The position numbers and the translations under genes are program-made. Below, piece by piece: positions 1 to 31,151 of a stretch of DNA of 64,000 nucleotides. The notes below the pieces were generated by a model, which saw only the letters and a list, made by a program, of their open reading frames with translations, did no database searches and was not told the origin of the DNA. The stretch's first letter is position 1; every line of letters begins with the position of its first letter. This stretch comes from an uncultured Verrucomicrobiae bacterium (GTDB taxonomy: Bacteria; Verrucomicrobiota; Verrucomicrobiia; Limisphaerales; UBA8199): NCBI GenBank assembly GCA_963762555.1, contig CAVXLO010000007.1:103640-167639 (forward strand). The letters are read 5' to 3'.

Positions 1-1228
1 GCGGGGCCGGGATTCGGGTCGGCCACGAGGGCCAGGATTCGCGCCGCGGGGGCCTGGCCGCGGAATTGGAGGGGGACGGCGGGCATGATTGAGCCGCGGG
101 CATTGGTGACCGTGGTGGACTCGAGGCCGCTGCCGGCGATGATGCCGGCGATGTGGGTGCCGTGGCCGTTGGCATCCACGCCGCCGCCCGGCGCATCGAA
201 CAGGACCCGGCCTTGCAGGTCAGGATGGTTCGCGTCCACACCGGAATCATTGACGTTGACGATGATATTGGTGCCGGTCAGGCCGAGGTAGTTCAGGGGC
301 GTGACGGTATCGGCGGCAACGGCGATGCGAGCGCGGCTCAAGTCATTGGCCAGCACGCGACGGTGGGTAAGCTCGATTTCCTGAACGCCGGGAAGGCCGG
401 CGAGCGCCGAGAGCATGGCACCGGCAGGCACCGCCGAAGATTGTCCTGGCCGCACTGTGAGCACCGGGCCAAAGGCAGACCTTTCTTCGCCGACCACCCG
501 CAGCCCGAGGCCGGTCAACTCCTTGCGCGCCGCGGTGCCGGCATCCGGGAAGAGCAACACGCTGAGCGCCTGGTCGTTCGGCAGGGGCTGTTGCTCGACC
601 GCCAGGGCCAGCAGCGGCCCCTTAAGCTTGAAGTACAGGCTCGTAGGGCACGACCGCCTGTGTCCCCGGTTCCGCCCCCAACCGTTCGGCGGCATCCTTC
701 GAAGCGCGGACCAGATAGGCCTGGTTGGGAATGTAGGCCACCACAACGGCCCCGGCGGCGCGCAGGCTGGCGCGAAACGCGTCATCGAGCGGCGCACGAG
801 ACTGAACGACGTAGGCGCCGGCATCGCCTTGAGCGCGCAGATGATCGGGGATCGCCAGGGCCACCGAGCGGCGTGGTGTCGAGCAGGGCGTTTTCGAGCA
901 GAAGGGCGGTAGGGCTATGGGCTAATTGGGCGAGAGGGGTGGTGGTATTGCTGAGGCGAAGAGCGAGGTCGGGCGTGACACTTGATGCGTGATGCGTAAT
1001 TGAAGCGGTGGCGGGCGCCGGGTTGGGGGTCGTGCCTTGACTCGGAAGCGGAACGGGCGACGGCAGACCGGCGCGTGATGACGGAGAGACACGGGACCAC
1101 GAATGAGGTTGCAGCAACGTGACGGTGCTCCGCTCGCCTGCCCACCTCTCCCCCATCCGCCAAACAAAGACGCCCGTGACCAAAAGCATCACGCTCATCA
1201 GTCGCCAGATCCAAGGCCGCGAGCGCAT
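1..1228 (-). CDS. S8 (subtilisin-like) serine peptidase, N-terminal part; runs off the window; paralog of the giant subtilase at 3235-13428
   Basis: N-terminus MRSRPWIWRLMSVMLLVTGVFVWRMGERW and segment LRLSNTTTPLAQLAHSPTALLLENALLDT match the 13428 protein; reverse strand of ~140-270 reads NIIVNVNDSGVDANHPDL (Asp motif) and DANGHGTHIAGIIAG (His motif); frameshifted. Confidence 0.88.
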
Positions 1229-1336
1229 AGCGCAATACAGGATAAAGCACCAACCCCATCAGTTGCCAGACAAAAGAATGCAATAATCCCGCGGCGTGCG
1301 CATCGCGACAATACCCCCAAGCGCCAGGCCCCAAAA

Positions 1337-1550
1337 GCCGAAACCCGAAGCCCGAAACCCGAAGGCCGAAAGAAGGCCGAAGTCCGAAACCCGAAGTCCG
1401 AAAAGCCGGCTCTCGCCCCTCTGCTAGCGCTGATTGAGCCGCTGCCGGCTGGCTCGCAGGCCCAGGCGCGGGGATGGAGCAGGTTCGCCTTTCGGATTTC
1501 GGACTTCGGCCTTCTTTCGGCCTTCGGGTTTCGGGCTTCGGGTTTCCGGC
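1337..1550. repeat. Inverted repeat built from CCGAARN-type heptamers around CCGAAGGCCGAAAGAAGGCCGAA; copy 1
   Basis: Left arm ~1337-1403 is the near reverse complement of right arm ~1490-1550; same family at 36831-37046. Confidence 0.85.
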
Positions 1551-1717
1551 CTGTGGCTGTCCGAAATGGTGGTACTAACAAGACGCGCCCCTCCGGAGCA
1601 GGATAGTTCTAACTGTGCCGGGAAATACCTCCGTAGCCGGACGCCTTCACGGAGCAGCTACTCTGGCTATTAGCGACCTGGCCGACAGCGCCCCGCGTGC
1701 TTCAACCGGAGGGGGGC

Positions 1718-2338
1718 TCAGCGGCGCTGATTACCCCGGCGGGCCGCCAGCAAGAAGCCGCCGAGACCCAGCAGCAGCCAGGAGGAGGGCTCGGGTACAC
1801 CGCCCGCGTCCTCGAAATTCGGGCCGACATACATCGAGCCGAACGTGCCGGACACTTCGGTGGGAAAGGTGAATCCGGCTGCGGAAACGGCCGTCGCACG
1901 CAAGGCAATGTCCGGCGACGCCGTAATGGTGCCTCCGGCGGCGACACCGGCCACGTTCACGCCCAGGGTGCCACTGGCGGAATAGACCCCCAGATGATAG
2001 ATCTGCGTCGGGTCCAGTGAAACCGGCGTGATGGATTCGTAGCGGCTCAGGTTAACCTGCGGACTGGTGGGGGTAATCACCTGAGAAGCCAGCAACACGC
2101 CGGTGTCATTCCATAAACCAACTTGGAGACTGGTCACGGTCGGGTTGTTGTCGAAGAGATTGGCAAAGCAACCCAGCTCGGTCGCCGTCAGGGTTGTAAC
2201 CGGCTGGAAGGTCCAGCCGGCGGTGGCGTTGACGAAGCTGCTGATGGAATTACCGTAGCCCAGGATGGCCTCGGTGGTGCCCTGAGCAAAAGTGGTCCAG
2301 GCCGCCCCGAGCGTCGCTAAAGCGAGCAGAATCTTCAT
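1718..2338 (-). CDS. PEP-CTERM sorting-domain protein with a small beta-rich (DUF4082-like) domain
   Basis: Signal peptide MKILLALATLGAAWTTFA; C-terminus VPEPSSWLLLGLGGFLLAARR (PEP motif, hydrophobic helix, basic tail). Confidence 0.9.
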   Translation of the reverse strand: MKILLALATLGAAWTTFAQGTTEAILGYGNSISSFVNATAGWTFQPVTTLTATELGCFANLFDNNPTVTSLQVGLWNDTGVLLASQVITPTSPQVNLSRYESITPVSLDPTQIYHLGVYSASGTLGVNVAGVAAGGTITASPDIALRATAVSAAGFTFPTEVSGTFGSMYVGPNFEDAGGVPEPSSWLLLGLGGFLLAARRGNQRR

Positions 2339-2408
2339 AGTTCCTTTCTGTTATTATTAACCCGCCCCAATTATGGCTTGGCACCCGCAGGTCTGCAAGT
2401 AAAAAACT

Positions 2409-3159
2409 CTACTGCACCAGGCGGTAATACTTCGGGCCGGACCCGATCGAGCCCAACGCTACGAACTCATCGCCCACGGTGCTCACCGAGAGGCCCGCAT
2501 CGGTCCATGTGCCGGTGAGCCCGACCTCCGATTGCAGGGTGTAGCCAGGATACGCGCGTGGGCCACGAGAGGCGGACCTGGTTGCCCGTGACAGAGCTCG
2601 ATGCTGAGCCTGGGCCGGGACTCGAACTGAAAGTTTGGGCCGGCATAAAACGAGCCGGACGTGCCAGATAATTCCGCAGGGGAGGCGAACCCGCCGCTGG
2701 CCAAGCGGCCATCGCGCGCAACTGCACCTCCGGCGCGCGTCCCGACCGTCCCTCCCGCCGCCAGCACCGGCCACACCGACACCGATGATGCCACCCGGGT
2801 AATAGACCCCGAGATGATAGATTTGGCCGGGGACCAGGCTGAGCCGGGTGATGGGTTCATAGCGGGTCTGGTCGAACAGAGCTGCTGGCCGGGGTGACGG
2901 ACGTGGAGGCCAGCAGCGCGCCGGTGTCATCCCACAACCCAACCTGGACGTGCCGTTACGCGCCGGGTTGTCGTCGAAGACTTTGGCGAAGCAGCCCAGT
3001 TCGGTCACGGTGAGGGCCCGGGTGGTCTGGAAAGTCCAGCCGGCCGTTGCGTCCACGAATCCGCTGATGTTGTTGGTGTAACCCAGGATGGCTTCCGAAG
3101 CCCCCTGGGCCAAGGCGTGCAGGTGCCGCCAGCACGGCTATCGAAAACAAGCACTTCAT
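2409..3159 (-). CDS. Secreted protein paralogous to 1718-2338 but ending in a ~65-aa YYRL domain instead of PEP-CTERM
   Basis: MKCLFSIAVLAA signal; AQGASEAILGYTNNISGFVDATAGWTFQ matches AQGTTEAILGYGNSISSFVNATAGWTFQ; tail QVRLSW..YPGYTLQSEVGLTGTWTDAG...GPKYYRLVQ; frameshifted. Confidence 0.85.
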
Positions 3160-13428: not shown

Positions 13429-13570
13429 AAACAGGAATAGTTAAACTGGGTGACAGAACTATAGCAACAGGGGACAGAGCAACGACCGCGCGCTGGGCGG
13501 GCTGCGTGCCGCTTGGAGCACTGGGGAATGCTAGAACAGGCGCACTTCGGCCGCCGCTGGCGGCTCGTAG

Positions 13571-13968
13571 CGCGAAGCGTTTGGAGTGCGCCGTATCCCG
13601 ACTGCACCTTGCACGCAATTCCGCGCTCGGCGGCATGTTGTTCCGCAACCCCGCTAGGGGTGACCTGTTTGTAGGAACCGGCGCCCGTGATGATGCTCCC
13701 AAACCCCGTCAGGGGTGACCTGCTCCTGGGTTGCGTTGCGCATGGCCCGCCAGCCCGCTGACAGGTCACCCCTGACGGGGTTTGGGAAGCCTTGGGCGTT
13801 CGGAGCTCTATAAACAGGTCACCCCTAGCGGGGTTTACCAGCGACGCCCGCAGAAGCTGGTATATGGCAGAAACTCGTGTAAGGTGCTGGTACCCCGGCG
13901 CTTTGGCACTCGCAACACCCCTGGCCATCCAAAAGCGCCAGGATACGGCGCACTCCAAATGCTTCGCG
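13571..13968. repeat. Composite nested palindromic element (REP/BIME- or MITE-like)
   Basis: Outer 28-nt inverted repeat CGCGAAGCGTTTGGAGTGCGCCGTATCC / GGATACGGCGCACTCCAAATGCTTCGCG; inner pairs ACCCCGCTAGGGGTGACCTGTTT with its reverse complement, and AAACCCCGTCAGGGGTGACCTG with its reverse complement. Confidence 0.85.
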
Positions 13969-14456: not shown

Positions 14457-14525
14457 GATGTAACCCATGTAACCCATTTAACTCATGTAACTCATGTAAC
14501 CGAAGTAACCCATGTAACCCATGTA
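14457..14525. repeat. 9-nt tandem repeat (TAACCCATG)n, degenerate
   Basis: About 7 copies directly downstream of the stop of the PilX/GspK-like gene. Confidence 0.85.
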
Positions 14526-14538
14526 GCTTCTCTGAACC

Positions 14539-17500
14539 CTAATCCGGCGGCAGCACCGTGAAACTCTCAACCACAGGATAGAGGTTGGTGATCGCCGGCG
14601 GTGGGCCGAAAGCTGAATAGGGCCGGACCCCATCGAGGCGAACCACGGTGCGGGTGGCCGATTCGGCCACGATCTGATAGTTCGTGCAAAGCCGGTAATC
14701 CGCTCGAAACAATCGAGTGGGGCGCGGGCTTGAGGGTCTGGCCAAAGGCGTAAATCACGAATCGTGGCGTATGGTCGCACTTCAATAGCCCCAGAATCTG
14801 CTGCGGCAGCCGTTCGTAGGCCTCGTCGTTCAGGCCGTTGTTGCAAATAGCTCGGCGTGCCGATGCGGTTCAGGAAAGGCGAAGCGGTCGTCAACTCCGG
14901 CACGGCCAGGATGTCACCCAGATGGCTGAATTCATGTCGGATGTTATTGGTGGCGCGAACATCATTGATGCGTTTGACGAGTTGGACCAGCGGCGGCCAG
15001 GTGCTGGGGTCGTATGGGTCATAGATGCCGGCGGGTTGGATCACCTCGGGCTGCAGGACCGGGTTCTCGTTGGGATCATTGGTGAGCGCGATGACGCCGC
15101 TCAGCAGGGCCGACCAAGCGGCGAGATTGGTCTGGTTGATGGACATCTGGCCGCGCGTGGCATTGTCGCTCAGGGCGGTCGTAAACAGGTCCAAAATGCG
15201 CCAGTCATTTGTCGGCTGCGTAAAGCGCGCGTCGGTGTCTATGCCAATGAGTGTTCTTGGGACATAAAGCGGCATCACATTCGTGGTAAACTGGCCCAGA
15301 TTCGTCACGAGTTGACCATCGCCGCTCCACTGCTGCCAATTATGCAGCCAGATAGGGTAATTCGTCCCCGCAAATGACTTCAAATACACGGTCTGCCAGG
15401 GCGTGCCGCGATGGACGCGGCCCAGCCAGCCAATGTTCGGGAACTTGTTCGTTGGGAAATCCCAATTATCAGACAGGAGCATCAACGGGTCTTTGACGGT
15501 GAGGTCATATAAGACCGGGCTGGAGCTATGGGCGCCGCCCCCGCCCCACGGCTCATAACGCAAATTGACCTGGCCAAGATTGTCGGTGGGCTTGGGGTCG
15601 GCGACATCTACTGAAAGGTTGGTATGCACCAGGTCCATCAAGTCTCCGACGGTGTAATGCACCAACGGGTCATTCGCCTGCCACGAGGTGAGCATGTAGA
15701 TGTTTCGGGACGGTTGGAAAGGGGCATTGAAGGTGTTGGAGGTCTGCAGGTAACCCGGCTGGAACTGGCCCTTGAAGAAGGTGATGGCGGCTTATTATGC
15801 TCATGCCCGGCGGGAATTCCTGGGTTGAGGGGTTCCAGTCCGGCGAGGTGTGACCCATACTGGCCTCAATCTGGTTTTGGATGCCGTAGGTTGCGACATT
15901 GTCGGACGTCGAGTTGTTCATGCGGTTGGTGCACCACATACTGCCATTGCTGCCGCTGGATGTGTAGGGATCACCACATTGTCCGCCGTCCATGAGGGCT
16001 GCGTTGACATCCAGATCCTGTTCGGAAGCCAGGTTCACATAGTCAATGATCCGGTTCGCGGCTTTATCAATGATGGCGACCCGGACCCGCGGTTTCAACG
16101 TGACCCGCCAATGCGGCAGGTAAAAATTTGTGACTCCAGCTTTCCGTTCAAAGGTGCCGGTTAACGGGATAAAGTCCTTACCCGCCTGCGAATATGTGCT
16201 GTTTGGGAGAAACACCCAATTGGTCATCATTGGAATCCGAAAAGAGGTACTGCGGGAACGATGGATCGAACCTGGACCACGTATGGGCTGGAATGTCCAT
16301 TGGGACTTGTGAGGGCAGACGGTATCTCTGTATCAGAGGAGGGGGGTTGAGCCACGTGCCGTCGTCAGCATTGGTGATCACGACACTGACGTCGGGCCAG
16401 GCTACTACTTGGACGTCGTTGGAAAATGGAGTGCCGTAAGAATTCCAAGCCTCGGCGCCCAACACATTGGAAATACCAAGGATATACATCTCATCAATCT
16501 CATTCACCGGTGCGGTTGTGGAAGTCCCTGGCCGGTGAAATTGGAGTTTGCGCGTCACCTGCACGGTCGTCTGCATGGCGAACTCGTTGAAATTAGGCAG
16601 GCCCTTCTTGGCGCCGATGATCAGCGGAATGCCATAGACCATGTCGGAAGCTCTGCTGTCAAAGGCAGCGAAATCCCCCGGCTCGGAGAGATCGCGCACA
16701 TTGTCATATTTAGAAACGAGGTTATAGGTTTCCGCAGGGGTGACCTCGTGATAGCCGACGATGAAGATCGGATTGTTGCCGTTCTTGTCGCTGAACTCGG
16801 GGCGGAATACCGTCGGCAGGTAAGCGGTATCATTCCCAACAACATAGTCCAGACGGTTCGTCGTGGCGTCATACATGTTGGCCGCAAGCTGCAAGAGACG
16901 GTTCACGCTTGGGGTATAATAGTTGGTAGGCCAAACCTGGATATGCAGATTGGTCACGAGCACCCCGCCGACGTAATTTGTGACCAGCACGCTTGCGGCA
17001 TAGTTGGCATTCCCAGGCGCGTAGCCGGCGTTCGCCAGCAGCCGGATGGCGGCATTGGTGAAGAACAGGGCCGGCTGCCAGGGAATGAAATTGGTCTCCA
17101 TGTTCGGCACCACGTAGCCATTGTCATCCACATTGCGATAATTGAGATTCATCTTGCCGCCGGGCTCGGGGGCGGAATCGGTGCCGAGTTGGGAGAGGAG
17201 GCGGTAGAAGGTATTGCGGTCGTAAGAATCGAGTTGGTTGCCAGCGGCGACCAGACGATCTGAAAAGCTGGGGATATTGGGGCCAAGCTGTGAGGGGCGG
17301 GTCTTGGACTGGTCGAACAAATCCTGCGTGGTGTAAAAGCGGTTGGGATTAGGTGCCCCGGGCCAGGACAAGTTCACCCGGGAGTTGTAGCTGTCGGGGT
17401 CGCCGAGGCCCGCCGGCCATGCTGTGCCGAGCATCACGGGTCCGCCGGAATAGTCGTCAATAAAGTCCCCCTGGAACGTGCTGGGTCCGTTCGTAAAGAG

Positions 17501-18600
17501 AAGCCCGGCGCTAGCAAGCGAATTCCACCTGCCTCCGTAACGGTAACCCAGCAGCGCAGCCGCATCGTCAAAGGCATGTCCCGTGTTGGGTCCCGGGAAC
17601 GGGTTATCGGCTGCCGTGTAGGGATTGTAATTGTAGTTGTTGCCGACATACCAGAAGTTCGTGTTCAGGTCTGCCAGAAAGGCCGCGAGGTTGATTTCTG
17701 CCGTAAGCGCGCCCTGGTTTCGCAGGAAGCCATCAGAGGGTCTGCTGAGGTCCTGGTGCTTCGCGTCATTGTAAATGTTGTTGATGTCGAGGGTCTGGCC
17801 CACTGGCACAGCGATGTAAGCGTAGCGGGAAATGAACGGGTTGTCGGCGGAGCAGCCAAATTCCGGATAGCGCAGGACACCGATCCATTCCGGGTCGCCC
17901 ACGAAGTAATTGCTCAGCGTGTTGCCCTCCTCGGGTTGTGCTATCTCCTTCCCGGTCAGGTCGTAGTAGCCGCCCAGTGGATTGATCACCGGCTGTAACC
18001 CGCTCGGGTCATCCCGCCCGTTGCGATTCAGGTCGAGGTAGAAGCGGAATTCGTTCGAGTTGGCAAAGAGGGCGTTGGTGATAAACACCGGGGGGCGCGG
18101 GTCGTAGAGGAGGTTGGCAATGTTTTGCTCCCAATCCAACGCGCTGAACCGCAACCTGTTCGCCTTGAAATCAAAATTGACGTTGGTCGGGTTGTTGTCC
18201 CCGCTGACGAATCCATACGGGTTGATATAATTGGTAGAAACGGACAACCCGTAATTGAACTCGTTGGTCCAACCGATCATGGGGCCGATGAACTGGGCGA
18301 TGGCGCGCTCGCGGGCGGTATCCGCTGCCAGCCGGGCGGTGGCTCGGTCGGTTTCAGTGGTGACGGAGCCGTGCGGCTGCGGCTGATCACCAGGAACGCG
18401 ACCGCCATGAAAGTGATGACCGAGAGCAGCAGCAGAGTGATGACGAGGGCGACGGCACGTTCGGAGGGATGCGTGAGGCGTGATGCGTGATCCGTGATGC
18501 GTGATCCGTGATGCGTGATGCGTGAAACGTGGGGCATGGGACGCGATGCTGGCTTCAGCATTCCGCATTCTGCATTCTGCATTCTACATTCTGTCTTCAT
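14539..18600 (-). CDS. Large PilX/GspK-like minor pilin (Verru_Chthon cassette protein A-like), ~1,350 aa
   Basis: Leader then ERA/VALVITLLLLSVITFMAVAFLVISR with no Glu5, typical of PilX/GspK; GKMNLNY and GQMSINQTNLAAWSALLSG motifs; C-terminal RFVIYAFGQTLKP; start overlaps the upstream stop; frameshifted. Confidence 0.8.
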
Positions 18601-19928
18601 TGGTAGCCAAGGGGATCAACATTGCGAATGGCGATGCGCTGGCGGAACAGGTGGACGCGGCTGGCAACCTCCGGGCGCTGGAGATAAGCCAGCCGGGCGG
18701 GGCCGCTGTCAATCGAGTTGTACCTTTCCCACGCATGTTGTTCGAGGATGCCGAACTCCATCTCGACATTGGCTGGCAGCGCGTTGCTGTAGAAATACAG
18801 GCCGGTCAGGTTGTCCGGGTAGGCCGTGTTCGGCACCGTGAAGGCCTGCCGGAGCGGGGTCTCGATCAGGTAAGTCGCACCGCCGATGTTGGTCCGGATG
18901 TTGAACCAGGCGAACGTCGAGGACCCGGTGCTGAAAATGGGGTAGCCGTTGGTCGCGAAGGCGCGGAAGCGGAAGTCTATCACACCGTCGCAGATTCGGT
19001 TCGACAGACTCACTGAGGCGGGTGAGCCGGGGAAGCACGCCGCCCGGAACGCCCGATAGAGTTGGGTCGGGTCCGAAGGGAGGCCGTCGGACTGGACGAC
19101 GTTGGTCGAGGCGTAAAAGCGATAGAGGCTGCCCACACCCATCTGGTTCGGGGCGCAGTCGGGTAGCCAGGTGAGCCCGTCCGCACTGTTCGTGCGCACG
19201 GCGTAGCCGATCCCGACCCAGGTCTGGTTCTGCCGCAGCAGCATGAAGCAGTCTTCCAGCACATTGGTCCGGAAAACCGTCGTGCCAGGCAACGCCTGGG
19301 TCAAGGGGATCGAAGAGGGCACTTGGACGCAGAAGTTGAACCCGTAGGTATATTGAGGATACGGGTAGCCCGCAGGCACCATCTGTTCGAGTTCGCGCGG
19401 GAGCATCTCGGTGACCGCTCGCCCGGCCTCCAGCCGGTCCACCTGGTTCATGCTGCTGCGGAAGGCGCGCTGCACCTGGTTAAACATGGCGAACAAGCCC
19501 AAAACGATGAAGCTGAGCAGGGCAATGGTGACGAGAATTTCGACCAGGGTGAACCCGGCGCGGCGCGACGCCGGTTGCCCGGCCGGCCTGCCTGTACCGC
19601 AGAGCGGCAAAGCCGCAACCGAATTGCGCGGAGCTCGCTCCCGCTCTAGCAGGGCAGCCCGGACCGTTTCAAAGCGCCAGCAGGCTCCACGCCTCATGCG
19701 GATCTCCATCGGCCCGGTGTGCTGCCCGGACCCGCGAGCCTGTTCCCCCTCACCCCAGCCCTCTCCTCGGGGAGAGGGAGAACACTCGCCAGCCTGGCGG
19801 CGAATCCGGCGCGCCTGGACGTTTCGGGAGCAAGACTCCGCGGCACCCTCTCCCCGGGGAGAGGGCCGGGGTGAGGGGGAACCGGGCGCTTGTTGCCTGC
19901 ACGCTTGAACTGGAAATGCCGTATTCAC
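18597..19928 (-). CDS. PilW/GspJ-like minor pilin (Verru_Chthon C-like); true start may be further downstream (~19700)
   Basis: Prepilin motif RRAG/FTLVEILVTIALLSFIVLGLFAMFNQVQRAFR; C-terminal LPANVEMEFGIL. Confidence 0.85.
   Translation of the reverse strand: MNTAFPVQACRQQAPGSPSPRPSPRGEGAAESCSRNVQARRIRRQAGECSPSPRGEGWGEGEQARGSGQHTGPMEIRMRRGACWRFETVRAALLERERAPRNSVAALPLCGTGRPAGQPASRRAGFTLVEILVTIALLSFIVLGLFAMFNQVQRAFRSSMNQVDRLEAGRAVTEMLPRELEQMVPAGYPYPQYTYGFNFCVQVPSSIPLTQALPGTTVFRTNVLEDCFMLLRQNQTWVGIGYAVRTNSADGLTWLPDCAPNQMGVGSLYRFYASTNVVQSDGLPSDPTQLYRAFRAACFPGSPASVSLSNRICDGVIDFRFRAFATNGYPIFSTGSSTFAWFNIRTNIGGATYLIETPLRQAFTVPNTAYPDNLTGLYFYSNALPANVEMEFGILEQHAWERYNSIDSGPARLAYLQRPEVASRVHLFRQRIAIRNVDPLGYQ
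19742..19881. repeat. REP-like palindrome family CCCTCACCCCRGCCCTCTCC..GGGAGAGGG, copy 1
   Basis: Two inverted units; further copies at 45365-45504, 47732-47873, 58510-58650. Confidence 0.88.
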
Positions 19929-19988: not shown

Positions 19989-20888
19989 TCAGAAGCCTGT
20001 AGGTGAGTTGGTGAACGTTCCGGGTTGGAAGAAATAGAGGTTGTAGCCCAAGTCATCCCTCACCTGGAGCGAACCGCCAACCAGGGTGCGAAAGGACTGG
20101 CCGCCCTGTCCAAGCATTCCCCGGGATCTCAGGGGCCACCGGAAGGTGAGGCGCAAATCGTGCAGGTTGGCCGCCATGTTTCTGGCCGCGATCCACTGGT
20201 TCAAGCCGGTTGCGTACTCCACCGTGTTGGTCGCATAAAAGGTGTAGTTGGTCCAGCTCGGGTCGTAATAGTTCGTCCCACAGGGAACGACCTCCGAGGT
20301 CATGCGATAGCTGAAGGCGAAGTCCTGCACGTCCGGGCTGTTTTGCGGGAACTTTTCGCTGGCCGGGCCGCTCATCGAGCGGACGTAGGCCGCGACGTGG
20401 TTGCGAACGACATCGCCGTTCTCTAAAGTAACGTACTTGGGAGTGGACAGGAGCCCCACGATGCGAAAACCGTTGACCAACGGAAACGAATTGGGCCCAG
20501 AAGGAGCCGTCGGCGTGTACCAATTCGTCCAAGTCTGAACCACGCTCGTCATGTCAGATTTGTACTCGGTCACATAATTGGTGATCGCCATGACATAGTT
20601 CGTGAGGTCATCCAGGCCCTCGGCGCCGTTGCGGAGGGCGTTCATCCAAACCGTGGCGTCCTGGTTGATGACGGTCTGCTCGCGGTTGTCCTTCTGCACG
20701 TTCATGCCGATGGGCAGGACGCCGATGATCGCAACCAGCGCAAAGCCGATGATGGCCAGGCTGATGGCGATTTCGATCATGGTGAAAGCCGAGGTGAAAC
20801 GTGATGCGTGATGCGTGACGCGTGATGCGTGATCCGTGATGCGTGATTCCGCATTCTGCATTCTGCATTCTACATTCTGCATTCTCAT
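19989..20888 (-). CDS. PilV/GspI-like minor pilin (Verru_Chthon B-like)
   Basis: SA/FTMIEIAISLAIIGFALVAIIGVLPIGMNVQKDNREQTVINQ; intact ORF. Confidence 0.88.
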   Translation of the reverse strand: MRMQNVECRMQNAESRITDHASRVTHHASRFTSAFTMIEIAISLAIIGFALVAIIGVLPIGMNVQKDNREQTVINQDATVWMNALRNGAEGLDDLTNYVMAITNYVTEYKSDMTSVVQTWTNWYTPTAPSGPNSFPLVNGFRIVGLLSTPKYVTLENGDVVRNHVAAYVRSMSGPASEKFPQNSPDVQDFAFSYRMTSEVVPCGTNYYDPSWTNYTFYATNTVEYATGLNQWIAARNMAANLHDLRLTFRWPLRSRGMLGQGGQSFRTLVGGSLQVRDDLGYNLYFFQPGTFTNSPTGF

Positions 20889-21870
20889 TGCACGCTCCTG
20901 TGCTCGACACGGGCACGGCCTGTCAGGCGGTCAATCTAGACCAGGCTGTAGTTGTCGGTGGTGTTGCCGGGCGGCCGCTCGATGACCTGGGCCGTCTGCC
21001 GGGGGTCTGATTTGCCGTAGCTGACGCTGCCCTCGGTGACCGGGATCAGCTCCGGCTGGCCGCTGACGCCGGATACCAGCGAGCCCATACCATCAAAGGC
21101 GATGTAAGGCAGGGCGACATAAGGCCGCGTTGGGGAAGCCGGCAGGGTTGTCTCGGAAGGGAACGGCACATTGGTGGTGTAATTGAAGCCGAAAACCTGG
21201 TAGGCGAGCACCCCGTTGGTGTAGATGTTGAGCACCGGCGTCGGGTTGGCAGGATTAAAAGGGGTGAACTTTTGCAGCGAGATATAGGCGCCTTGGGGAA
21301 AGGTCCGCCAGGAGGACAAATAGCGGGGCGTGTGGACAGCCGGTTGGTCGCCCACGCTCCGCAGGCAGACATAGGCGTATGCCATCAGTTGCTTGGTGTA
21401 CAGGTTGTCGCCACGCTCTTATCGTCGGCGGTCCAGGCACTAAAGTTGTAAGCAGGATCGTTCCAAAAGTTGGTGGGCAGGAAAACCATATAGACGGTCG
21501 TGCGCTGGCTGAGGGCGAGTTGGCGGGCGCGCCCCACCGCATCGAGCAACTCCCGCGTGGTGGCCACCTTGGCGTTGGGCTTAAGCCCCCGCAGCGTCGG
21601 CAACGCAAGGGCGGCCAGAATCCCCATGATGGCGATGACCATCAGCAACTCGAGGAGGGTGAAGGCCACCAGCCCGGGGCGAACGAGGAAATTCGAGGCG
21701 CGATGTGGAACATCGGCCATTGGATGTTGGATGTTGGATGTTGGATGTTGGATGTTGATCTCTGAACACTGGATGCGGCCTCTCACCTCCGGGCGGGCTG
21801 CTGCCGGGACCCAGGCGGCGGCTGGGCCGGCAAAAGATTCCGGCTTCGCTATTAATCGGTGGGTCTTCAC
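20885..21870 (-). CDS. FimU/GspH-like minor pilin (Verru_Chthon D-like)
   Basis: VA/FTLLELLMVIAIMGILAALALP...LLDAVGRARQLALSQRTTVYMVF; tail IDRLTGRARV; one frameshift near 21390 and an in-frame TAG at 20936-20938; stop overlaps next ATG. Confidence 0.82.
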
Positions 21871-21875: not shown

Positions 21876-22760
21876 CTACTTCCAGCTCACGATATTATCC
21901 TTGTTGGCTCCCTGGTTGGCCGGGGCGCTCGGGTCAATCAGCTTGTCCGGGCCGGGGGACCAGACCATCACCGGGGCATTGGCTTCATAAATGGTGTTGC
22001 CGGCAACCACCTTCGGGATCAGGCCGTTGAGCCCCCGCTTGACTGTTGCGGGATCGCTCTTATCCGCTGAGACATCGATGTTACGGTAAAAGAAATCGCG
22101 CGCCTTATCATCGTAGTTGAGGTCAATCGTGATGATGTAAGGGTTGCCCCAGGGATCGCGGTAGGTGCCGTCCTGGCCCACTCCCGGCGACTTGTTGTCG
22201 CTGGCCATAGTGGCATTCAGGTAGTGGGTCTTTTGGGGATTCTTGACGTGGTCCTTGTTGACGGTCGGCACGGTGGGCGAATTGGGCCAATATTCCACGT
22301 CCATGAGAATGGCCATCACCTCGGCGTTGTTCGTCTGGTATGGCTTGCTAACATCGGGCTCGTTGCTGGTAATAGACACGTAGCCGCCCGGCGTGCTGAA
22401 ACCGGCCTCGTAGGCATTGGGCCCACCCGGGCCAACGCAAATGAGGCCCGCTGTGCCATAGGTGAAGTCCTCCGGACCGCCCGACCCCGGCGGGACTCCC
22501 GACGCCGCGTCCCTCGCGCCGTTGGAGACGGGGAACTTGCTGTAATCGGCCTCGTACGTATGGATGGCGTTGGCGATCTGGCTCGCTTCCAATTGCGCCT
22601 TTTTCACCTGCGCCTTGACCTTGACCCGGGCCAGGACCGGCAGGAGCAGGGCGGCCAGGATCGCGATGATGCTGATCACGACGAGCAATTCGATCAGGGT
22701 GAAGCCCCTGGTGGCACGGGGAGAGGTTCTGTGCTGGTACTTCATAAGAGTGGAGGGCAT
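21876..22760 (-). CDS. Type IV pilin / GspG-like pilin
   Basis: RG/FTLIELLVVISIIAILAALLLPVL; YRDPWGNPYII; VWSPGPDK; DNIVSW. Confidence 0.92.
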   Translation of the reverse strand: MPSTLMKYQHRTSPRATRGFTLIELLVVISIIAILAALLLPVLARVKVKAQVKKAQLEASQIANAIHTYEADYSKFPVSNGARDAASGVPPGSGGPEDFTYGTAGLICVGPGGPNAYEAGFSTPGGYVSITSNEPDVSKPYQTNNAEVMAILMDVEYWPNSPTVPTVNKDHVKNPQKTHYLNATMASDNKSPGVGQDGTYRDPWGNPYIITIDLNYDDKARDFFYRNIDVSADKSDPATVKRGLNGLIPKVVAGNTIYEANAPVMVWSPGPDKLIDPSAPANQGANKDNIVSWK

Positions 22761-23007: not shown

Positions 23008-23810
23008 TCATCCTTCTGGATAATTGGTGGAAGTCAGGACGATGGGCTTGTCGCTCCAGTTGCAAATGCGGTTGATCTTGTCGCCGGCGCTGATATCCAG
23101 CCACAAGTCGTACGACTTGGTGTTGAAGACGGGGTTGGACGAGTTATAGCGCCACGGGTTGATGCGGGTGAGGGCGTTATTCTGGTACATCAGGGGCCCT
23201 TCGAGGCCGGAGCCAAGCACCGTAGGGGTGATCGGGGCTCCCACGATGCTCACCGCCAGGAATTGACTGGGCTTTAGGTCGGTCAAAAAGGAAACCGCGC
23301 TCGGGGCCTCGTCGCTGTGGCGACCCGGTCGAGCGCAGTTCATGAAGCTCCTGACGGGTGTGGCGGCGCCGAAAACGCCCGTGAAGGTGGCGGCGTTATC
23401 GGGGAACTGGGCGCTGCCATCCAGCGTGTCATAAACGCCATTGGTCGATGTGGTGGTTCCCAGCAGCTCGTAATAGAGCTGGTTCACGGCCCAGTTGCCG
23501 GGGTTGTCGGGCGGGTAATAGCCGAGTTTCTCTTGTAGCGCTCGATGGCGGTTTCGAGCTGCGTCATCTCGTTGCGCGCCCGGGTGCGGATGGCCGCCCG
23601 CTTGCCGCCCGAACGGCCGGGAACGTCAGCGCGGCCAGGAGGGCGATGACGGCTATGACGACCAGCAGCTCGATGAGGGTGAAGGCGCTGGGAATGCGGG
23701 AGGCGTGAAACGTGAAAGTGAAACGTGATGCCGCTGACCCGTGCGGAGCGGATCCGTCATCCGATCTCCCGTCTTCCGTCTTCTGTCTTCTGCGTTTGCT
23801 TCGTTTTCAT
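23008..23810 (-). CDS. Type IV pilin / GspG-like pilin (start 23810 or 23760)
   Basis: Reverse strand ~23690-23620 reads SA/FTLIELLVVIAVIALLAALTFPAV; later AIERYK..LGYYPPDNP and NPWRYNSSNP..N.KSYDLW; frameshifted. Confidence 0.82.
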
Positions 23811-24082
23811 CGTTCGCGCAGTTCGTGTTCCAGCCGTTCACTGAGCCATTGCTTGATCATGCTTTGGTAATTCAAATAGCGGGATTGGGCCAGTCTTTTG
23901 ATGCGGGCCAACATCCGCGGGTCAATCCGCAGGGAAATGGCGACCGACCCGGAGGATCGGCGGGCGCCGGCTACCGCGGCCTCCATGAGGCGCAGGTCGG
24001 GCTTGTTCTCCGCCCAAAAATCCGCCTCGGCCTCTTCGCTGTCGAAGATCGGCACTTCTTCCCATCTGGCAATCGCGCGCAT
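23807..24082 (-). CDS. BrnA/CopG-like antitoxin (ribbon-helix-helix)
   Basis: VPIFDSEEAEADFWAEN N-terminus and AISLRIDPRMLARIKRLA...YQSMIKQWLSERL C-terminus; directly downstream of a BrnT-like gene. Confidence 0.8.
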   Translation of the reverse strand: MRAIARWEEVPIFDSEEAEADFWAENKPDLRLMEAAVAGARRSSGSVAISLRIDPRMLARIKRLAQSRYLNYQSMIKQWLSERLEHELRER

Positions 24083-24159
24083 GTTTCACTGTTCAGCGAC
24101 TGGACTACTTCACCGATCACTGATTACTGAGTACTGATTACCGGTTACTAACCCCCGAC

Positions 24160-24446
24160 TCACTGCGCCAGGCTCTGATCCATTTTCCGCTGGTAGAAGA
24201 ACCGTTCTTCGGGCTCGAACGGGCGGGCGTACAGGACGCGCGCCTGCTTGCCGTTCGTCCGATACACACTGAAGATGCCCGCCCCACCGCCGACACACCC
24301 AGGTTAAAGAACCGGGCCTGCACCGAGAACCGGGGCGAATCCGGCAATAGCCGAATCGCAAATGGGTCCTCGAACGATTCTTCGATTTCCTGCAGCGTCA
24401 AAGAACTATCCAGATTGAAGGGCGGATTATTCCAATCAAACTCCAT
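24160..24446 (-). CDS. BrnT (DUF497)-like toxin homolog
   Basis: MEFDW...EIEESFEDP...RFFNLG; after one frameshift GIFSVYRTNGKQARVLYARPFEPEERFFY, matching the BrnT pattern. Confidence 0.72.
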
Positions 24447-24473
24447 AGCAGCTTAATTGTCAATCTAATGCCC

Positions 24474-24907: not shown

Positions 24908-26279
24908 TCATCCGGCTGGCCGGCGACGGTTGCCAAGCGATTGCGGATCGTCGGGCCACCTCTTGCCGCCGGAGGTATCGCCGCCGACGTTGTTCATCAG
25001 CTCGATCAGGGGCAGGAACATGGCGATGACGATGCTGCCGACGATGACGGCCAGAAAGACAATCATGATCGGCTCGAGCAGGGAGGTCATGGCCGCGACG
25101 GCGTTATCCACCTCGTCGTCGTAGTTGTCGGCGATTTTGAGGAGCATTTCGGGCAGGGCGCCGGTTTGTTCGCCGACGTCCACCATGCTGATGACCATGG
25201 GCGGGAAGACGCCGGAGGCTTCGAGCGGGGCGGTAATGGTTTCGCCTTCTTTGACGCTCTCGTGGACGGCGCCGACGGCGTTGCCGACGATGACATTGCC
25301 GGCGGTTTCTTTGACGATGGTCAGGGCCTGGAGGATGGGGACGCCGCTGCTGACGAGGGTGCCCAGGGTGCGCGTGAAGCGGGAGATGGAGACCTTGCTG
25401 ACGACCGGGCCGACGACGGGCACCTTGAGCTTGAACTTGTCCCAGGCGTGGCGGCCGAACTTGGTGCGGACTTGAACAGCATGAAGAGCACCACGAACAC
25501 GGCCACGCCGCAGGATCGGTATAAACGAAGTGGTCCTTGATCATGTCGCTGATGCCGAGGACGAAGCGGGTGAAGGCGGGCAGCTGGGCGTTGTCCAACA
25601 TGCCGGCGAAGACATCCTTGAACTTCGGGAATGACATACACCATCAGGATGGTCAGGATGCCGGTGGCCACGATCAGCACGGCGACGGGGTAGAACATGG
25701 CCGCGATGACCTTGCCTTTGATCTTCTGGGCCTTCTCCATGAACTCGGACAGGCGGTTCAGCACGACTTCGAGCACGCCGCCCAGCTCGCCGGCCTTGAC
25801 CATGTTGACGAAGAGCCGGTTGAAGACTTTGGGGTGCTGGGCCAGGCCCTCGGAGAAGGTGCTGCCGCCTTCGATCGCCAGCGCCAGCTCGCCGATGATC
25901 GACTTGAGGGTGGGGTTGCGCTCCTGCTTCTCCAGCACGCGCAAGCCGCGCAGCAGGGGCAAGCCGGCATCCACCAGCGTCGCCAATTGGCGGGTGAAGG
26001 TGGTCAACACCTTGGATTTCACCCGGCCGCTGAGGCCGGGGATCTTGATGTTGAGGTTCATGTTGAGCCCCTTGCCCTTCTTCTTGCCGCCGGCTTTGGC
26101 GGGCGGCGCCGGCCTTTCTTGCCGGGCTTCTCCTTGACCTTGTCGGTCTCGACGATCTTGGTCGGGAACAACCCCATTTCCTTGACCCGGCCGATGGCCT
26201 CGTTCTGGCTGGCGACTTCGAGCGTGCCCTTGCTCTCCTTGCCATGGGCGTCCATGGCCACGTAATTGTATTTTGGCAT
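24908..26279 (-). CDS. pilC: PilC/GspF inner-membrane platform protein
   Basis: MPKYNYVAMDAHGKESKGTLE; FTRQLATLVDAGLPLLRGL; VNMVKAGELGGVLEVVLNRL; VGEQTGALPEMLLKIADNY; LLEPIMIVFL; frameshifted, exact stop uncertain. Confidence 0.93.
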
Positions 26280-26296
26280 AAGGGTGGGAGTTAAAC

Positions 26297-26400: not shown

Positions 26401-26406
26401 ACTTCT

Positions 26407-28121
26407 TCATGTGTATTTAACGATTTCTTCGATAGTAGTATCACCCTCAAAGATGCTGCGCAAGCCGTCTTCCCGCAGGGGGATCATGCCCAGCTCGACG
26501 GCCTTCTGGCGCATCACCACCGTCGGCGCGCGCTCGTTGATCAAGGCCCGGATGGCGTCGCTCGATGGTCAGCAGCTCGAAGATGCCTTTGCGCCCCTTG
26601 TAGCCGGTGTCGTTGCAGGCCGAGCAGCCGCGCCCGTAGTAGAAGGTCTTGTCGCCCAGGTCGTGCGGCGAGAGGTTGAGCAGGGCCAACTGCGTCTCGG
26701 TCGGCTCGAAGGGCGTGCGGCAGTTCTTGCAGATCGTGCGCACCAGCCGCTGGCCGACCACCGCCACCAGCGTGGAGGAAATCAGGAACGGCTCGACGCC
26801 CATGTCCACCAGACGCGTGACGGCGCCCGGGGCATCGTTGGTGTGCAGGGTGCTGAGCACCAGGTGGCCCGGTCAGGGAGGCCTGGATGGAAATCTGCGC
26901 GGTCTCCAGGTCGCGCATTTCGCCCACCATGATGACGTCCGGGTCCTGGCGGAGGAACGAGCGCAGGGCCTTGCTGAAGGTCAGCCCGACCGCCTCGTTG
27001 ATGGCCACCTGCATGATCCCTTCGATGTCGTATTCGACCGGGTCCTCCGCCGTGAGCAGCTTCGAGTCAATGGTGTTGACCCGGCGCAGGCAGGAGTAAA
27101 GGGTGGTGGTCTTGCCGCAGCCGGTCGGGCCGGTGACGACGATGATGCCATTGGGCCGCTGGATGGCTTCGACGATGTAATCGTAAAGGTATTTGGGGAA
27201 GCCCAGCGACTCGATCTCCAGGTTGACCGCCGCCGGTCCAGCACGCGGAGCACGACCGATTCGCCGAACTGGGTGGGCAGCGTCGAGACGCGCAGGTCAA
27301 TCGTGCGGTTGCCCATGGTTGTAACTGATGCGCCCGTCCTGCGGCAGGCGGCGCTCGGAGATGTTCAGGTTGGCCATGACCTTGAGGCGCGAGACGACCG
27401 GCAGCGCCAGGTGCTTGGGCGGCGGCGACATCTCGTAGAGGGCGCCGTCCACGCGGTAGCGGATCTTGAATTCGCTCTCGAAGGGCTCGAAATGAATGTC
27501 GCTGGCCCGGTCCTGCACGGCCTGGATAGAGCACCAGGTTGACGAAGCGGACGATCGGCGCCTGGTCGGCCAGGCGCGCCATCATGGTCGCGTCATCCAG
27601 TGACCGCCACCTCGGCTGGCTTCCTTGGCGATTTCCTTGTCCGTCGCCCAGCTCCTTGAGGATGTCGGTGACGCTCTCGCTCTCCTCGGGGTAGAACTTC
27701 TCGATGGCCTTCTGGACTTGCGCCGGGTCGGCGACGACCAACTGGATGTCCTTCTTGACGACGAAGCCCAGCTCGTCAATGCGGCCGAGGTTGAGCGGGT
27801 CCACCAGGGCGACTTGCAGGGTGGAATTCTGCCAGGCCCACCGGCAGGCATTGGTACATGCGCGCCATCTTGGCCGGCACCAGCCGCAACAGCTCGGGCG
27901 TCAGATCGCGCTCGCTCACCGTGACCACCGGCGCGCCCAGATGGCTGGCGATCGCCTGCAGGATCGTGTCCAGGTCCAGCACGCCGAAGTCCTGGAGGAT
28001 CTGGCTGACGGGCTTGCCGGTGCGTTTGAACTCGCCCAGCACTTCCTCGGTACTGCAGATCGTCGATCAGGCCTTGTTCCTTGACCAGGGAGAGCAGCGG
28101 GTTGGAGATGTCGTCGGGCAT
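26407..28121 (-). CDS. PilB/GspE-family assembly ATPase (copy 2)
   Basis: [19 protein letters not shown], Walker A GPTGCGKT (reverse strand ~27110-27135), [28 protein letters not shown]...[13 protein letters not shown]; ends [11 protein letters not shown]; frameshifted. Confidence 0.92.
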
Positions 28122-28127
28122 ACGCGG

Positions 28128-29250
28128 TTAAGCCTTCCCCTCGACGACTGCCTGCGTGTCGGCGCCCACCGCCGCCGCCAGCTCCAGCTCCTGGAGCTTG
28201 GCCTGGATGGTCACCGGGTCCTGCGCCTTGGTGACCACTTCCTCGCGGGCGATCATGCCCGCCAGGTATTTATCAATCAGGAAGCTGTCCAGCGTCACCA
28301 TGCCATACTTGGCGCCGGTCTGGATGTCGGATTGAATGCGGAAGGTCTTGTTGTCGCGGATCAGCGCCGCGATGGAGGGCGTGTTGATCATGATCTCGAA
28401 GATGGCCACGCGCCCGGGCTTGTCAATGCGCGGGATCAGCAACTGCGAGATGACCGCCTGCATGCACCGTCGAAAGCTGGATGCGGATTTGCTCCTGCTG
28501 GTTGGTGGGGAACGCGTTGACGACGCGGTCAATGGTCTTGGCCGCGCCGGTGGTGTGCAGCGTGCCGAACACCAAGTGCCCCGTTTCCGCCGCCGTGATC
28601 GCCGCGTCAATCGTCTCCAGGTCGCGCATTTCGCCGACCAGAATCACGTCCGGGTCCTGGCGCAGCACGCGCCGCAGCGCCTCGGCAAAGTTCGGCACGT
28701 CCACGCCGATCTCGCGCTGGGTGACGATGGCCTTCTTGTGCTTGTGGTAATACTCGATCGGGTCCTCGATGGTGACGATGTGGGCCTCGTCGCGCTCCTC
28801 GTTGATGATGTTGATCATCGAGGCCAGCGTGGTCGTCTTGCCCGAGCCCGTCGGGCCGGTGACCAGCACCAGGCCGCGCGGTTTGTAGAGCAGTTCCTTG
28901 GCCGAGGGCGGCAGGCCGATCTGCTCCATCGTCAGCATCTTGTTGGGAATCTGGCGCAGGACCATGCCGAAGTTGCCCTTCTCCTTGAAGACGCTGACGC
29001 GGAAACGCGCCATGTCGCCGAAGGCGAAGCCGAAGTCGGCGCCGCCGCGCTCGCGCACATGCTGGATGTGGTCCTCCGAGGTGATGCTGCGCATCAGCTC
29101 CTCGGTGTCTTCCGGCGACAGCGACGGCCCTTCCACCCGGTGCAGAATGCCGTGCACGCGGATCACGGGCGCGGTGCCCACGCGGATGTGCAGGTCGGAG
29201 GCGCCTTCCGACACCACCAACTGCAACAGATCGGACATCGAGTAGGACAT
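28128..29250 (-). CDS. pilT: Type IV pilus retraction ATPase PilT
   Basis: [86 protein letters not shown]; one frameshift. Confidence 0.93.
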
Positions 29251-29361
29251 GCTTAATTCCGTTATACGCCCATTTTCTCAGTGCACACATTTCATTAGTC
29301 CGGCGAAGCCTAACACCAGGATCAGACAGCCGAGAAGCCTATTTATCACGCCGGCATCCGC

Positions 29362-31079
29362 TCAATCCACATCTCCCACCGTCGCGCGGATCACTTCGTC
29401 CGGCGTAGTCAATCCAGCCTGCACCTTGCGGATGCCGTCCTCGCGCAGGGTGCGCATCCCCATCTCGCGGGCGCGGGCGCGCAGGACCGACGAGGAGACC
29501 TTCTCGTAAATGAGCTTTCGGGCCTCGTCATCAATGACGAAGATCTCGAAGATGCCGAAGCGCCCGCGGTAGCCGGTGTTGGAGCAATTGGAGCAGCCTT
29601 TGCCTTTGTGGAAGGTGGCGCCCTGGACTGGTCGCCGCATCCAGGCCCAGCGAGCGCATTTCCGCCTCGGTGGGCATGTAGGGGCCCGCGCACTGCTGCA
29701 GACCTTGCGGACCAGCCGCTGGGCCATCAGGGCGCGCGTCGAGGAAGCCACCAGGAACGGCTTGACGCCGATATCAATGAGCCGGGTGACCGCGCTCGGC
29801 GCGTCATTGGTGTGCAGCGTCGAGAAGACCAGGTGCCCGGTGAGCGAGGCATTGATGGCGATGGTCGCCGTCTCCAGGTCGCGGATTTCCCCGATCATGA
29901 TGACGTTCGGCGCCTGGCGCAGGATCGCGCGCAGCGCCGCCGAAAAACGTCAGCCCGACGGCCTCGTTGACCTGCACCTGGTTGATGCCCGACAGCAGGT
30001 ATTCCACCGGGTCCTCGACGGTAATGATCTTGCGGTCCGGCCGGTTGATGAAGTGCAGGCAGGAATAGAGCGTCGTCGTCTTGCCCGAACCGGTGGGCCC
30101 GGTCACCAGCAGGATGCCGTCCGGCAGGCCGATCAGCCGCTCGAACGTCTGCTGGTCATCGGTGAAAAAGCCCAGCTCCGGCAGGCCCAGCCGCAGCCCT
30201 TCCTTGTCCAGGATACGCATGACGATGCTTTCGCCGTGATTGGTCGGCAGGCAGGACACGCGCAAGTCAATGAGCTTGGTGCCCACCGAGGTCTGGATAC
30301 GCCCGTCCTGGGGAATCCGGTGCTCGGAGATGGACATGTTGGACTGGATCTTGAGGCGGCTGATCATCGCCGCCTGCAGCCGTTTGGGCGGGGCCTTGAC
30401 CTCGTGCAGCACGCCGTCAATCCGGTAGCGCATGCGGAAGACCTTCGACCAGCGGCTCCAGGTGAATGTCCGAGGCCCGCATCTTGAAGGCCTCGGTAAT
30501 GATCGAATTGACCAGCTTGATCAGCGGCGCATCGGCTTCCACCACCGCGCCGTCGGTCGCCGCCGCCGCCTCGATCTCGACGTGCTCGCGCGTGAGGTCC
30601 TCGATAACCTCCTGGAGACGCGGATCGGTCGCCGCGCCGCTCCGCTCCGCGTAATACCGGCTCAAGGCCGACTCGATGTCGGCCTCCGAGGCCACCCGCA
30701 GCTCGATGTCCGCGTGCAGCAGATGCGCCAGGCTGTCAATGGTGTCCAAGGTCCGAAGGGTCGGCCAGCGCCACCGTGACGCTGTTGTCGTGCTTGAAGA
30801 CCGGCACGACCCGGTATTTGCGCGCGATGTGCCGCGGGACGGTGGCGATGACATCGTCGGCAATCTTGCAACTCGCTCAGGTTGACGACCTCCGCGCCGA
30901 AATGCGCGGCCTTGGCCTGCGTAACGTCGGCCGGGCGCACGACCTTGTTGGCCACCAGCAGGTCCACCACTCCGACCCCGGTCGGCCTGGGCCTCCTGCC
31001 GCGCCTCGGCTACTGTCTCGGCGGTGACGAATCCCAGGTCAACCAGGATGTCTGCCAGATAATCGTCTTTTTCAGCCAC
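29362..31079 (-). CDS. PilB/GspE-family assembly ATPase (copy 1)
   Basis: [80 protein letters not shown]; frameshifted. Confidence 0.92.
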
Positions 31080-31123
31080 GGTTTATTTTGCACTACACAC
31101 GTTCGTCGTGGATCGTTGGTAAA

Positions 31124-31151
31124 AGCCTAGTGGGGAAACCGCCGTTGTCAA
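31124..31151 (-). promoter_or_regulatory. Candidate sigma70 promoter of the pilus/secretion operon
   Basis: Minus strand TTGACA-N16-TAGGCT about 45 nt upstream of the GTG start at 31079. Confidence 0.55.

Follow-up and report, generated by a model that had tools for sequence, protein, structure and literature searches.

Type IV pilus machines are described as secreting proteins in Vibrio cholerae and Dichelobacter nodosus (PMC4471445), and in D. nodosus a pilus machine that bears PilT is tied to the export of S8 proteases (PMC4471445, PMC3480457). In the Omnitrophota, conserved loci that resemble type II secretion systems (T2SS) precede giant genes, some of them with N-terminal S8 domains (bioRxiv 10.1101/2023.11.21.568195). 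According to Ellison et al., K proteins of the T2SS type supply the last strand themselves, while type IVa pili (T4aP) receive this strand from the C-terminus of PilC/PilY1 (PMC13533445). How type IV filament machines choose and move their cargo is still open, and intermediates between pili and secretion systems are mostly known as unclassified 'generic' hits. Here, a locus related to these systems is described, for which no published description was found in literature searches. It lies in a stretch of 64,000 nt, hereafter the window (contig CAVXLO010000007.1 of assembly GCA_963762555.1, positions 103,640 to 167,639), from an uncultured Verrucomicrobiae bacterium of Limisphaerales UBA8199, and it encodes a type IV filament machine with a giant GspK-like tip pilin (hereafter K-like), followed by a giant subtilase of family S8.

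The genes of the locus are all on the minus strand, reading from 31082 down to 1 (Table 1), and the Pfam and NCBIfam scans of frame fragments from which genes in the window were called recovered every gene named in the preliminary description. The locus is intact and collinear in five relatives that represent four families of the order; there, pilB-pilT-pilB-pilC are followed by a BrnT/BrnA-like pair, five pilins, K-like and S8. The proximity of S8 to the pilin operon, seen at first in this genome, reaches far beyond it. When the K-like and S8 fragments of the window were used as queries against 40 relatives of the order, S8 was found directly downstream of K-like, on the same contig and strand, in 30 of them. 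Four of the ten misses were fetched (G026, G027, G028, and G035), and in all four the contig stops just past the K-like gene; for several others, the coordinates place the K-like match at a contig end or the match is only to a weak paralog. In a public survey, restricted to the best 80 of at least 548 K-like loci, the S8 N-terminus is directly downstream of K-like in 74, and in the remaining six the contig ends less than 500 nt past the K-like gene. Adjacency is therefore seen in 74 of the 74 loci with enough downstream sequence, with K-like proteins that share 36-48% identity, and no complete contig that parts K-like from S8 was seen among the relatives checked and the best 80 public loci. 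Orthologues of PilT are found in all 40 relatives, with 63-96% identity, and in 18 of these PilT is encoded 9-16 kb upstream on the same contig; in the remainder, long-flank genomes included, it is on other contigs. Given that PilT is linked in only 18 of the 40, the linkage of S8 to the tip genes is closer than that of the motors, and in one relative (G039) the motors are elsewhere while S8 is still with the tip genes. From this gene order, the tip module and the protease are very likely to be functionally linked, and the protease may be a cargo, a tip-displayed subunit or a processing enzyme.

The K-like protein has 1,349-1,423 aa in the five intact relatives and 1,182-1,210 aa in three further genomes. 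None of the 34 members of the family has a Pfam domain, except for PilX_N in four, and no NCBIfam model matches the K-like protein. The 1,182-aa orthologue was modeled with AlphaFold2 from a 65-sequence alignment, with a mean predicted local distance difference test score of 74.9 and a predicted template modeling score of 0.73. Foldseek returned nothing for this model against the PDB at E <= 0.001. With an exhaustive aligner, the best match was GspK of enterotoxigenic Escherichia coli (ETEC; 3ci0_K; Z 13.4, root-mean-square deviation 5.9, 256 of 280 residues), followed by XcpX of Pseudomonas aeruginosa (Z 11.3) and ComZ, a competence pilin of Thermus (Z 8.4). The three alignments all cover the model from residue ~52 to 1181 (52..1181 for 3ci0_K), indicating that the pilin fold is built from the two ends of the protein; the K-like protein is thus predicted to have the fold of GspK with ~900 residues inserted. 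The insertion gave only weak matches to Ig-like sandwiches at residues 507-730 (Z <= 3.6). A ComEA-like helix-hairpin-helix match at residues 991-1106 (Z 4.2) was discarded as a hint of DNA uptake, since no helix-hairpin-helix family was found in the 34 members; the alpha-domain of GspK has a fold of the helix-hairpin-helix kind. After the G/A-V-A-L start, the +5 position of the K-like protein is not Glu, and GspK likewise lacks Glu5. The C-terminal motif …VIESFN.LPP[DE] is conserved across the order and, from the ranges of the alignments, the C-terminus appears to close its own fold in cis, as in T2SS. Given this apparent strand in cis, the tip is T2SS-like by the criterion of Ellison et al.

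In species-representative genomes, at least 548 relatives of the K-like protein were confirmed, and the labels of those listed are Limisphaerales, Pedosphaera, metagenome-assembled genomes of Verrucomicrobia subdivision 3, and a few evidently mislabeled bins. At E <= 1e-20 the family was found in none of 200 Verrucomicrobiota comparison genomes, which belong to families other than the 17 represented among the relatives. By the taxon labels of the public records, the system therefore appears to belong to one order, the Limisphaerales (subdivision 3), and its proposed specificity for the whole Planctomycetes-Verrucomicrobia-Chlamydiae (PVC) group was too wide.

The catalytic domain of the giant S8 protein is recognized by PF00082 with 107 bits in a fragment of the window and 132 bits in an intact congener (G001), and the motifs of the Asp-His-Ser triad can be read (DSGVD, GHGTH, and GTSMA). 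The nearest solved enzymes are SubHal and KP-43. Orthologues are intact open reading frames (ORFs) of 2,447-3,436 aa. In a set of 42 sequences, G001 plus 41 orthologues, conservation extends over the first ~1,600 residues, which comprise the hydrophobic N-terminus, propeptide-like domains, the split catalytic domain, beta-domains and the P-domain; the remainder is variable. The protein in the window ends in two tandem C-terminal domains of a type that is considered below (FYR-type), and the G001 protein additionally carries an NHL propeller.

In the intact relatives, pilB1 encodes about 570 aa, pilT 375 aa, pilB2 568 aa and pilC 438 aa. Scores against equivalog models were obtained with the intact orthologues of G001 (ATPase 1, 570 aa; ATPase 2, 568 aa). 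Assembly ATPases 1 and 2 are below the cut-off of the PilB model TIGR02538 (616 and 613 bits versus 675.65) and below that of the GspE model TIGR02533 (604 and 607 bits versus 630.25), and are thus nearly equal for both, with a slight lean to PilB. They are 45% identical to each other, both have the Walker A motif, the His box and both CxxC pairs, and their best solved matches, over the full length, are the PilB of Geobacter and Myxococcus. The seven such ATPases of another intact relative (G019) are all under both the PilB and the GspE cut-off. The platform protein reaches 410 bits with GspF (cut-off 424), and 402 (Myxococcus-type) and 381 with the PilC models (cut-off 700). The PilT orthologue passes TIGR01420 (440.8 bits, cut-off 319.1), which is the sole T4aP-type model passed, and by this score PilT is judged to be genuine. 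Between 23806 and 18597 there are five N_methyl pilins, none of which passes a Gsp equivalog cut-off. The N-terminus of pilin 3 matches GspH, GspG and Verru_Chthon D, all under the cut-offs; pilin 4 of G001 has only a weak N_methyl match; and for the profile of pilin 5, the pilin helix is the sole match among solved structures. By these scores, the assembly ATPases and the platform protein do not group cleanly with T4aP or with T2SS, in line with the preliminary description of a T2SS/T4P-like machine.

Genes for a secretin, PilM and a prepilin peptidase are absent from the window, as the preliminary description had recorded, and all occur elsewhere in the genome. There is one prepilin peptidase gene. 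On contig C24, three small genes of 226, 203 and 213 aa, the second with a weak T2SSM match, lie between PilM and a secretin, and neither an ATPase nor a pilin adjoins this group. The Pfam models of PilN and PilO have no match in this genome, and they match in only 3 of 14 control genomes. The missing parts appear to exist in a scattered layout like that of T4aP, which Denise et al. describe as multi-locus (PMC6668835). Given that the motors fit neither set of cut-offs, PilT is genuine by its score, the tip is GspK-like and a PilM-to-secretin operon is found elsewhere, the system is on present sequence evidence best called a T4aP/T2SS hybrid. With the T2SS (ETEC 3CI0 and P. aeruginosa XcpVWX 5VTM) it shares a G-like pilin followed by the H, I, J and K positions, and a K-like model that matches both the N- and C-terminal parts of GspK/XcpX. 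Unlike the T2SS, the locus has PilT and two ATPases with a full PilB-type N-terminus, its K protein is four to five times larger, and it has no GspC, GspL, GspM or GspD genes, the nearest equivalent being the operon on C24. With T4aP it shares the full-length PilB matches, PilT, the multi-locus layout and, immediately downstream of the pilin at the K position, a very large gene, in the place that Ellison et al. note for pilY1 and mshQ (PMC13533445). In this case, however, the large gene encodes an S8 protease with no PilY1 match in Pfam or NCBIfam, the last strand of the K protein apparently comes from the K protein itself, PilB is present as two paralogs, and PilB and PilC are under the equivalog cut-offs.

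The proteases of D. nodosus are of ordinary size and are encoded elsewhere, whereas that of the Limisphaerales has 2,447-3,436 aa and is encoded inside the pilin operon; the link is described as experimental in D. nodosus and is genomic only in the Limisphaerales. The Omnitrophota are likewise members of the PVC group and have a conserved type II/IV-like locus, with class III signal-peptide genes, before a very large gene. They are, however, another phylum, with much larger proteins and with gspD and rcpC-type genes in the loci, and the passages of that work that concern these loci mention neither a K-like tip pilin nor PilT, nor a strict adjacency of K and S8. The Verru_Chthon cassette resembles the locus in having verrucomicrobial prepilin-type proteins and a giant member, and the preliminary description mentions it. 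Of the models TIGR02596, TIGR02598, TIGR02599, and TIGR02600, TIGR02596 gives 32-35 bits (cut-off 70) and TIGR02599 gives 27-30 (cut-off 256.5), the N-terminal helices alone match (20-35 bits against these two cut-offs) and the K-like protein is unmatched; the pilins are not members of this cassette. The features particular to this locus are its invariant partner S8 and a motor set of PilB-PilT-PilB.

The reading that we rank first, with a probability of about 0.55, is that this type IV filament locus exports or presents the S8 protease through a secretin. The pilins, once cut by the single prepilin peptidase, would be assembled on PilC by the two PilB motors and would pass through the secretin of the PilM-to-secretin operon on the other contig. 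The newly made protease would carry propeptide-like domains and an N-terminal membrane anchor, and would be engaged in the periplasm by the H-I-J-K tip, enlarged by the insertion in K. The tip would then drive or carry the protease through the secretin, and PilT would reset or retract the filament.

Several observations weigh against this reading. The genome has six secretin genes, none of which can be assigned as the partner. The labels H, I and J are given by gene order and by N-terminal matches under the cut-offs, and the closure of the K-like fold in cis was read from alignment ranges, not from coordinates. By eye, the N-terminus of S8 resembles an uncleaved membrane anchor and not the classical signal peptide of a T2SS substrate. 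Co-transcription of K-like and S8 is doubtful in this genome, because a spacer of 1.1 kb with hairpin-rich repeats separates the two genes; in four relatives this spacer has 10-84 nt, and in G001 about 370 nt. The gap noticed earlier at 13430-14540 is real, with no detectable gene, and it holds nested inverted repeats of 26-29 nt at 13570-13969, a 9-bp tandem array at 14458-14525, and short dispersed repeats, among them a 39-bp element with copies on many other contigs. Finally, in six of the seven genomes of another class that were inspected, the homologous S8 gene does not adjoin pilus genes.

The S8 gene stands right after the I-J-K series, a position noted for pilY1 and mshQ (PMC13533445), and this raises the alternative, ranked second, that S8 is a structural tip subunit in the place of PilY1/MshQ, that is, an adhesin-protease head on a retractile pilus from which it is not released. 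The presence of PilT, the lectin-like LamG domains of S8, the NHL propeller of G001, and the poor conservation beyond residue ~1,600, as expected of a binding head, are all in line with such a role. Nonetheless, the K-like model aligns with GspK to its last residue (52..1181) and the C-terminal motif is conserved across the order, so that the strand donated in trans by PilY1-type proteins is apparently supplied in cis, which is the state described for systems without PilC/PilY1 (PMC13533445). The C-terminus of S8 is, moreover, a generic domain common to 253 frames of the genome. The apparent cis strand weakens this alternative, which we consider unlikely.

The N-terminus of S8 bears on another explanation, ranked third, in which the protein stays in the inner membrane and, like a mycosin, acts as a protease in the maturation or quality control of the K-like pilin or of other components of the filament. 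The N-terminal segment is hydrophobic and moderately conserved (mean identity 0.52 over residues 1-25), the pairing with the K-like gene is strict, and the best NCBIfam match of the catalytic domain is the mycosin of type VII secretion systems, although at 44-49 bits this is far under the cut-off of 278.75. A protein of 2,447-3,436 aa with P-domain, LamG and NHL modules is, however, oversized for a processing enzyme, it ends in a domain typical of large, probably extracytoplasmic proteins, and homologues of S8 occur in another class where K-like was not found at E <= 1e-20; for these reasons, such a role is regarded as improbable.

That the locus encodes an ordinary type IVa or competence pilus, with S8 as a conserved neighbor without functional tie, is very improbable: the pilB-pilT-pilC order, the PilM-to-secretin genes at a separate locus as in T4aP (described as multi-locus; PMC6668835) and the third structural match, to Thermus ComZ (Z 8.4), agree with it, but S8 follows K-like directly in 74 of 74 loci despite K-like identities of 36-48%, it remains beside the tip genes in genomes whose motor genes are at another place (G039 and the PilT survey), and no component is above a T4aP equivalog cut-off except by the PilT subfamily model.

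The reading of export or presentation through a secretin can be extended to a more speculative and less probable possibility, that the retractile hybrid of type IV pilus and T2SS is a dedicated delivery device for a membrane-born protease of ~300 kDa, in which the 900-residue K head might be the cargo adaptor and the enzyme might be loaded and expelled, or extended and reeled in, by one filament over repeated cycles of PilT. If true, a single giant cognate cargo would be secreted by coupling to the tip, a mode that differs both from general export by T2SS and from tip adhesins of the PilY1 type. A very common and almost uncultured group of soil and freshwater keeps an invariant pairing of tip cap and giant protease; the locus offers a concrete pair of putative cargo and machine, a natural case of PilT alongside a T2SS-type tip, and possibly a way for Verrucomicrobia to bring degradative enzymes of very large size to the outside of the cell.

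Table 1. Coordinates of the features of the locus and of its repeats within the window
Feature	Position	Strand	Evidence and state
pilB/gspE-type assembly ATPase 1	29365..31082	-	MshEN and T2SSE; 3 frame fragments
pilT retraction ATPase	28134..29256	-	TIGR01420 359 bits on one fragment; 2 fragments
pilB/gspE-type assembly ATPase 2	26410..28121	-	MshEN and T2SSE; at least 6 fragments
pilC/gspF platform protein	24983..26280 (start about 26280)	-	Two T2SSF domains; 2-3 fragments
BrnT-like small protein	24141..24452	-	Frame-shifted 3' half; weak BrnT_toxin match of orthologue
CopG/BrnA-like ribbon-helix-helix protein	23810..24085	-	CopG_antitoxin 1.9e-10
Pilin 1	23011..23806	-	N_methyl; collinear with G001 pilin 1; fragments
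Pilin 2, GspG-like	21876..22760	-	N_methyl; TIGR01710 GspG 52.7 bits (cut-off 88.85, under); weak T2SSG
Pilin 3, GspH position	20888..21870	-	Maps to G001 pilin 3; 2 fragments
Pilin 4, GspI position	19989..20888	-	53% identical to G001 pilin 4; assigned by gene order alone
Pilin 5, GspJ position	18597..19556	-	N_methyl; TIGR01711 GspJ 33.3 bits, N-terminus only (cut-off 64.85, under)
Giant GspK-like tip pilin, ~1,350 aa	14542..18600	-	Maps to G001 1,423-aa protein; at least 5 fragments
Repeat-rich non-coding K-like/S8 spacer	13429..14541		No Pfam/NCBIfam match
Giant S8 subtilase, ~3,400 aa	3235..13428	-	Peptidase_S8, P_proprotein, Laminin_G_3 (three fragments), SO2946-like_C; at least 10 fragments
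Small paralog 1	2409..3137	-	Frame-shifted; FYR-type domain at end; maps to G001 small protein and S8 tail
Small paralog 2, 206 aa	1718..2338	-	PEP-CTERM 25.7 bits (cut-off 20.7); DUF4082 17.7, under cut-off
Second S8 subtilase, ~2,000-aa class	1..1228	-	S8 domain; runs off window start
FYR-type domain, examples	3238-3492, 2412-2621, 32255-32509	-	
Heptamer arrays	18468-18593, 20800-20889, 21720-21757, 22766-22804, 23753-23790, 24115-24149		

Outside the families of the relatives, homologous S8 genes of 3,500-4,200 aa are present in 11 of the 200 Verrucomicrobiota genomes. In the six genomes of another class where S8 does not adjoin pilus genes, the homologous giant S8 gene is preceded by that of a small coiled-coil protein of 142-255 aa, one of which has a weak FliJ match. 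In a further genome of another class (G228:C11:80500-92754, minus strand), a 3,527-aa S8 protein is encoded directly after a pilin, four small genes, one of them with a weak T2SSM match, and a secretin, which hints that the coupling of the S8 family to secretin machines is older than the order.

The second S8 gene of the window continues at C7:103134-104879, and a frame with two FYR-type domains is found at C7:98686-102027; a tandem S8 arrangement is likewise seen in G002, G003, G004, G018, and G023. The two small paralogs had been put forward as candidate cargo. However, the small DUF4082-like/PEP-CTERM protein occurs in only 12 of the 40 relatives, all of one family and mostly beside an S8 gene. 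The second S8 protein and the small beta-sandwich proteins are better seen as probable lineage-specific add-ons.

The YYRL/FYRA ending that had been suggested as an export label of this machine belongs to a C-terminal domain of ~70 residues with the end (R)FYR(L/V)xx(P). In this genome, 214 six-frame ORFs end in the FYR motif, and a profile made from them matched 253 ORFs, with 234 of the 262 matches within 8 residues of the stop. The domain is unknown to Pfam and NCBIfam, and in a protein atlas it was found only in unnamed verrucomicrobial clusters. It is present in 69 of the 200 Verrucomicrobiota genomes, a set in which the K-like family is found in none. Given that it is spread over the genome and is present without the K-like family, the tail cannot be the specific address label of the machine, and as a machine-specific export tag it is ruled out by its distribution. 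It may be a general sorting or anchoring domain and, as a separate, phylum-wide and unnamed C-terminal domain, it is worth a study of its own.

One example of this domain is in the minus-strand frame 32255-34081, just upstream of pilB1, where a fragment of an AAA-ATPase is joined to a FYR-type tail; here, a frame error has probably fused two genes into one frame. The counterpart of this frame in G001 is a HEAT-repeat protein, which places it outside the conserved locus.

When the intact proteins of G001 were mapped onto the window with tblastn, the mapping was collinear and at least 25 frame changes were counted over 31 kb. Homopolymer errors were rejected as their source, given that 1 of 19 junction windows had a run of at least 5, versus 9% of random windows. 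The essential gene rpoB of the same genome (G000:C38:95898-99677) is equally broken, being split over at least three frames, and completeness is low (66.8% versus 93% for two congeners). The frame breaks are therefore attributed to assembly errors and not to decay of the locus, in agreement with the earlier hint that the sequence needs polishing. Because rpoB is affected as well, gene models across the whole assembly are unreliable before polishing. An Rfam scan of window positions 1-34000 at the gathering thresholds gave zero matches.

A BrnT/BrnA-like pair lies between pilC and pilin 1 in the loci of five out of five relatives, one of which has its ATPases elsewhere, and it is single-copy in this genome. 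The intact BrnT-like orthologue of 95 aa is under the cut-off of BrnT_toxin (E 0.005, 17.6 bits versus 34.5). The CopG/BrnA-like protein is under that of BrnA (19.5 versus 26.1) and passes that of CopG_antitoxin (42 versus 28). It is 56-90% identical in G001, G011, G019, G039, and G033, always directly upstream of pilin 1, and is a candidate regulator of the operon. The pair behaves like a component or regulator of the operon, unlike a mobile toxin-antitoxin module.

Tandem heptanucleotide repeats precede the pilin genes in nearly every spacer, and the 12-kb pilin window has 7 period-7 arrays versus a mean of 1.07. Such arrays are by far the commonest tandem repeat of the genome (685 merged arrays). 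They were rejected as a pilin-specific feature, given their number genome-wide and their presence upstream of 10 of 99 pilin-motif frames versus 2% of random positions. Translated forms of the heptamer repeats recur in congeners only.

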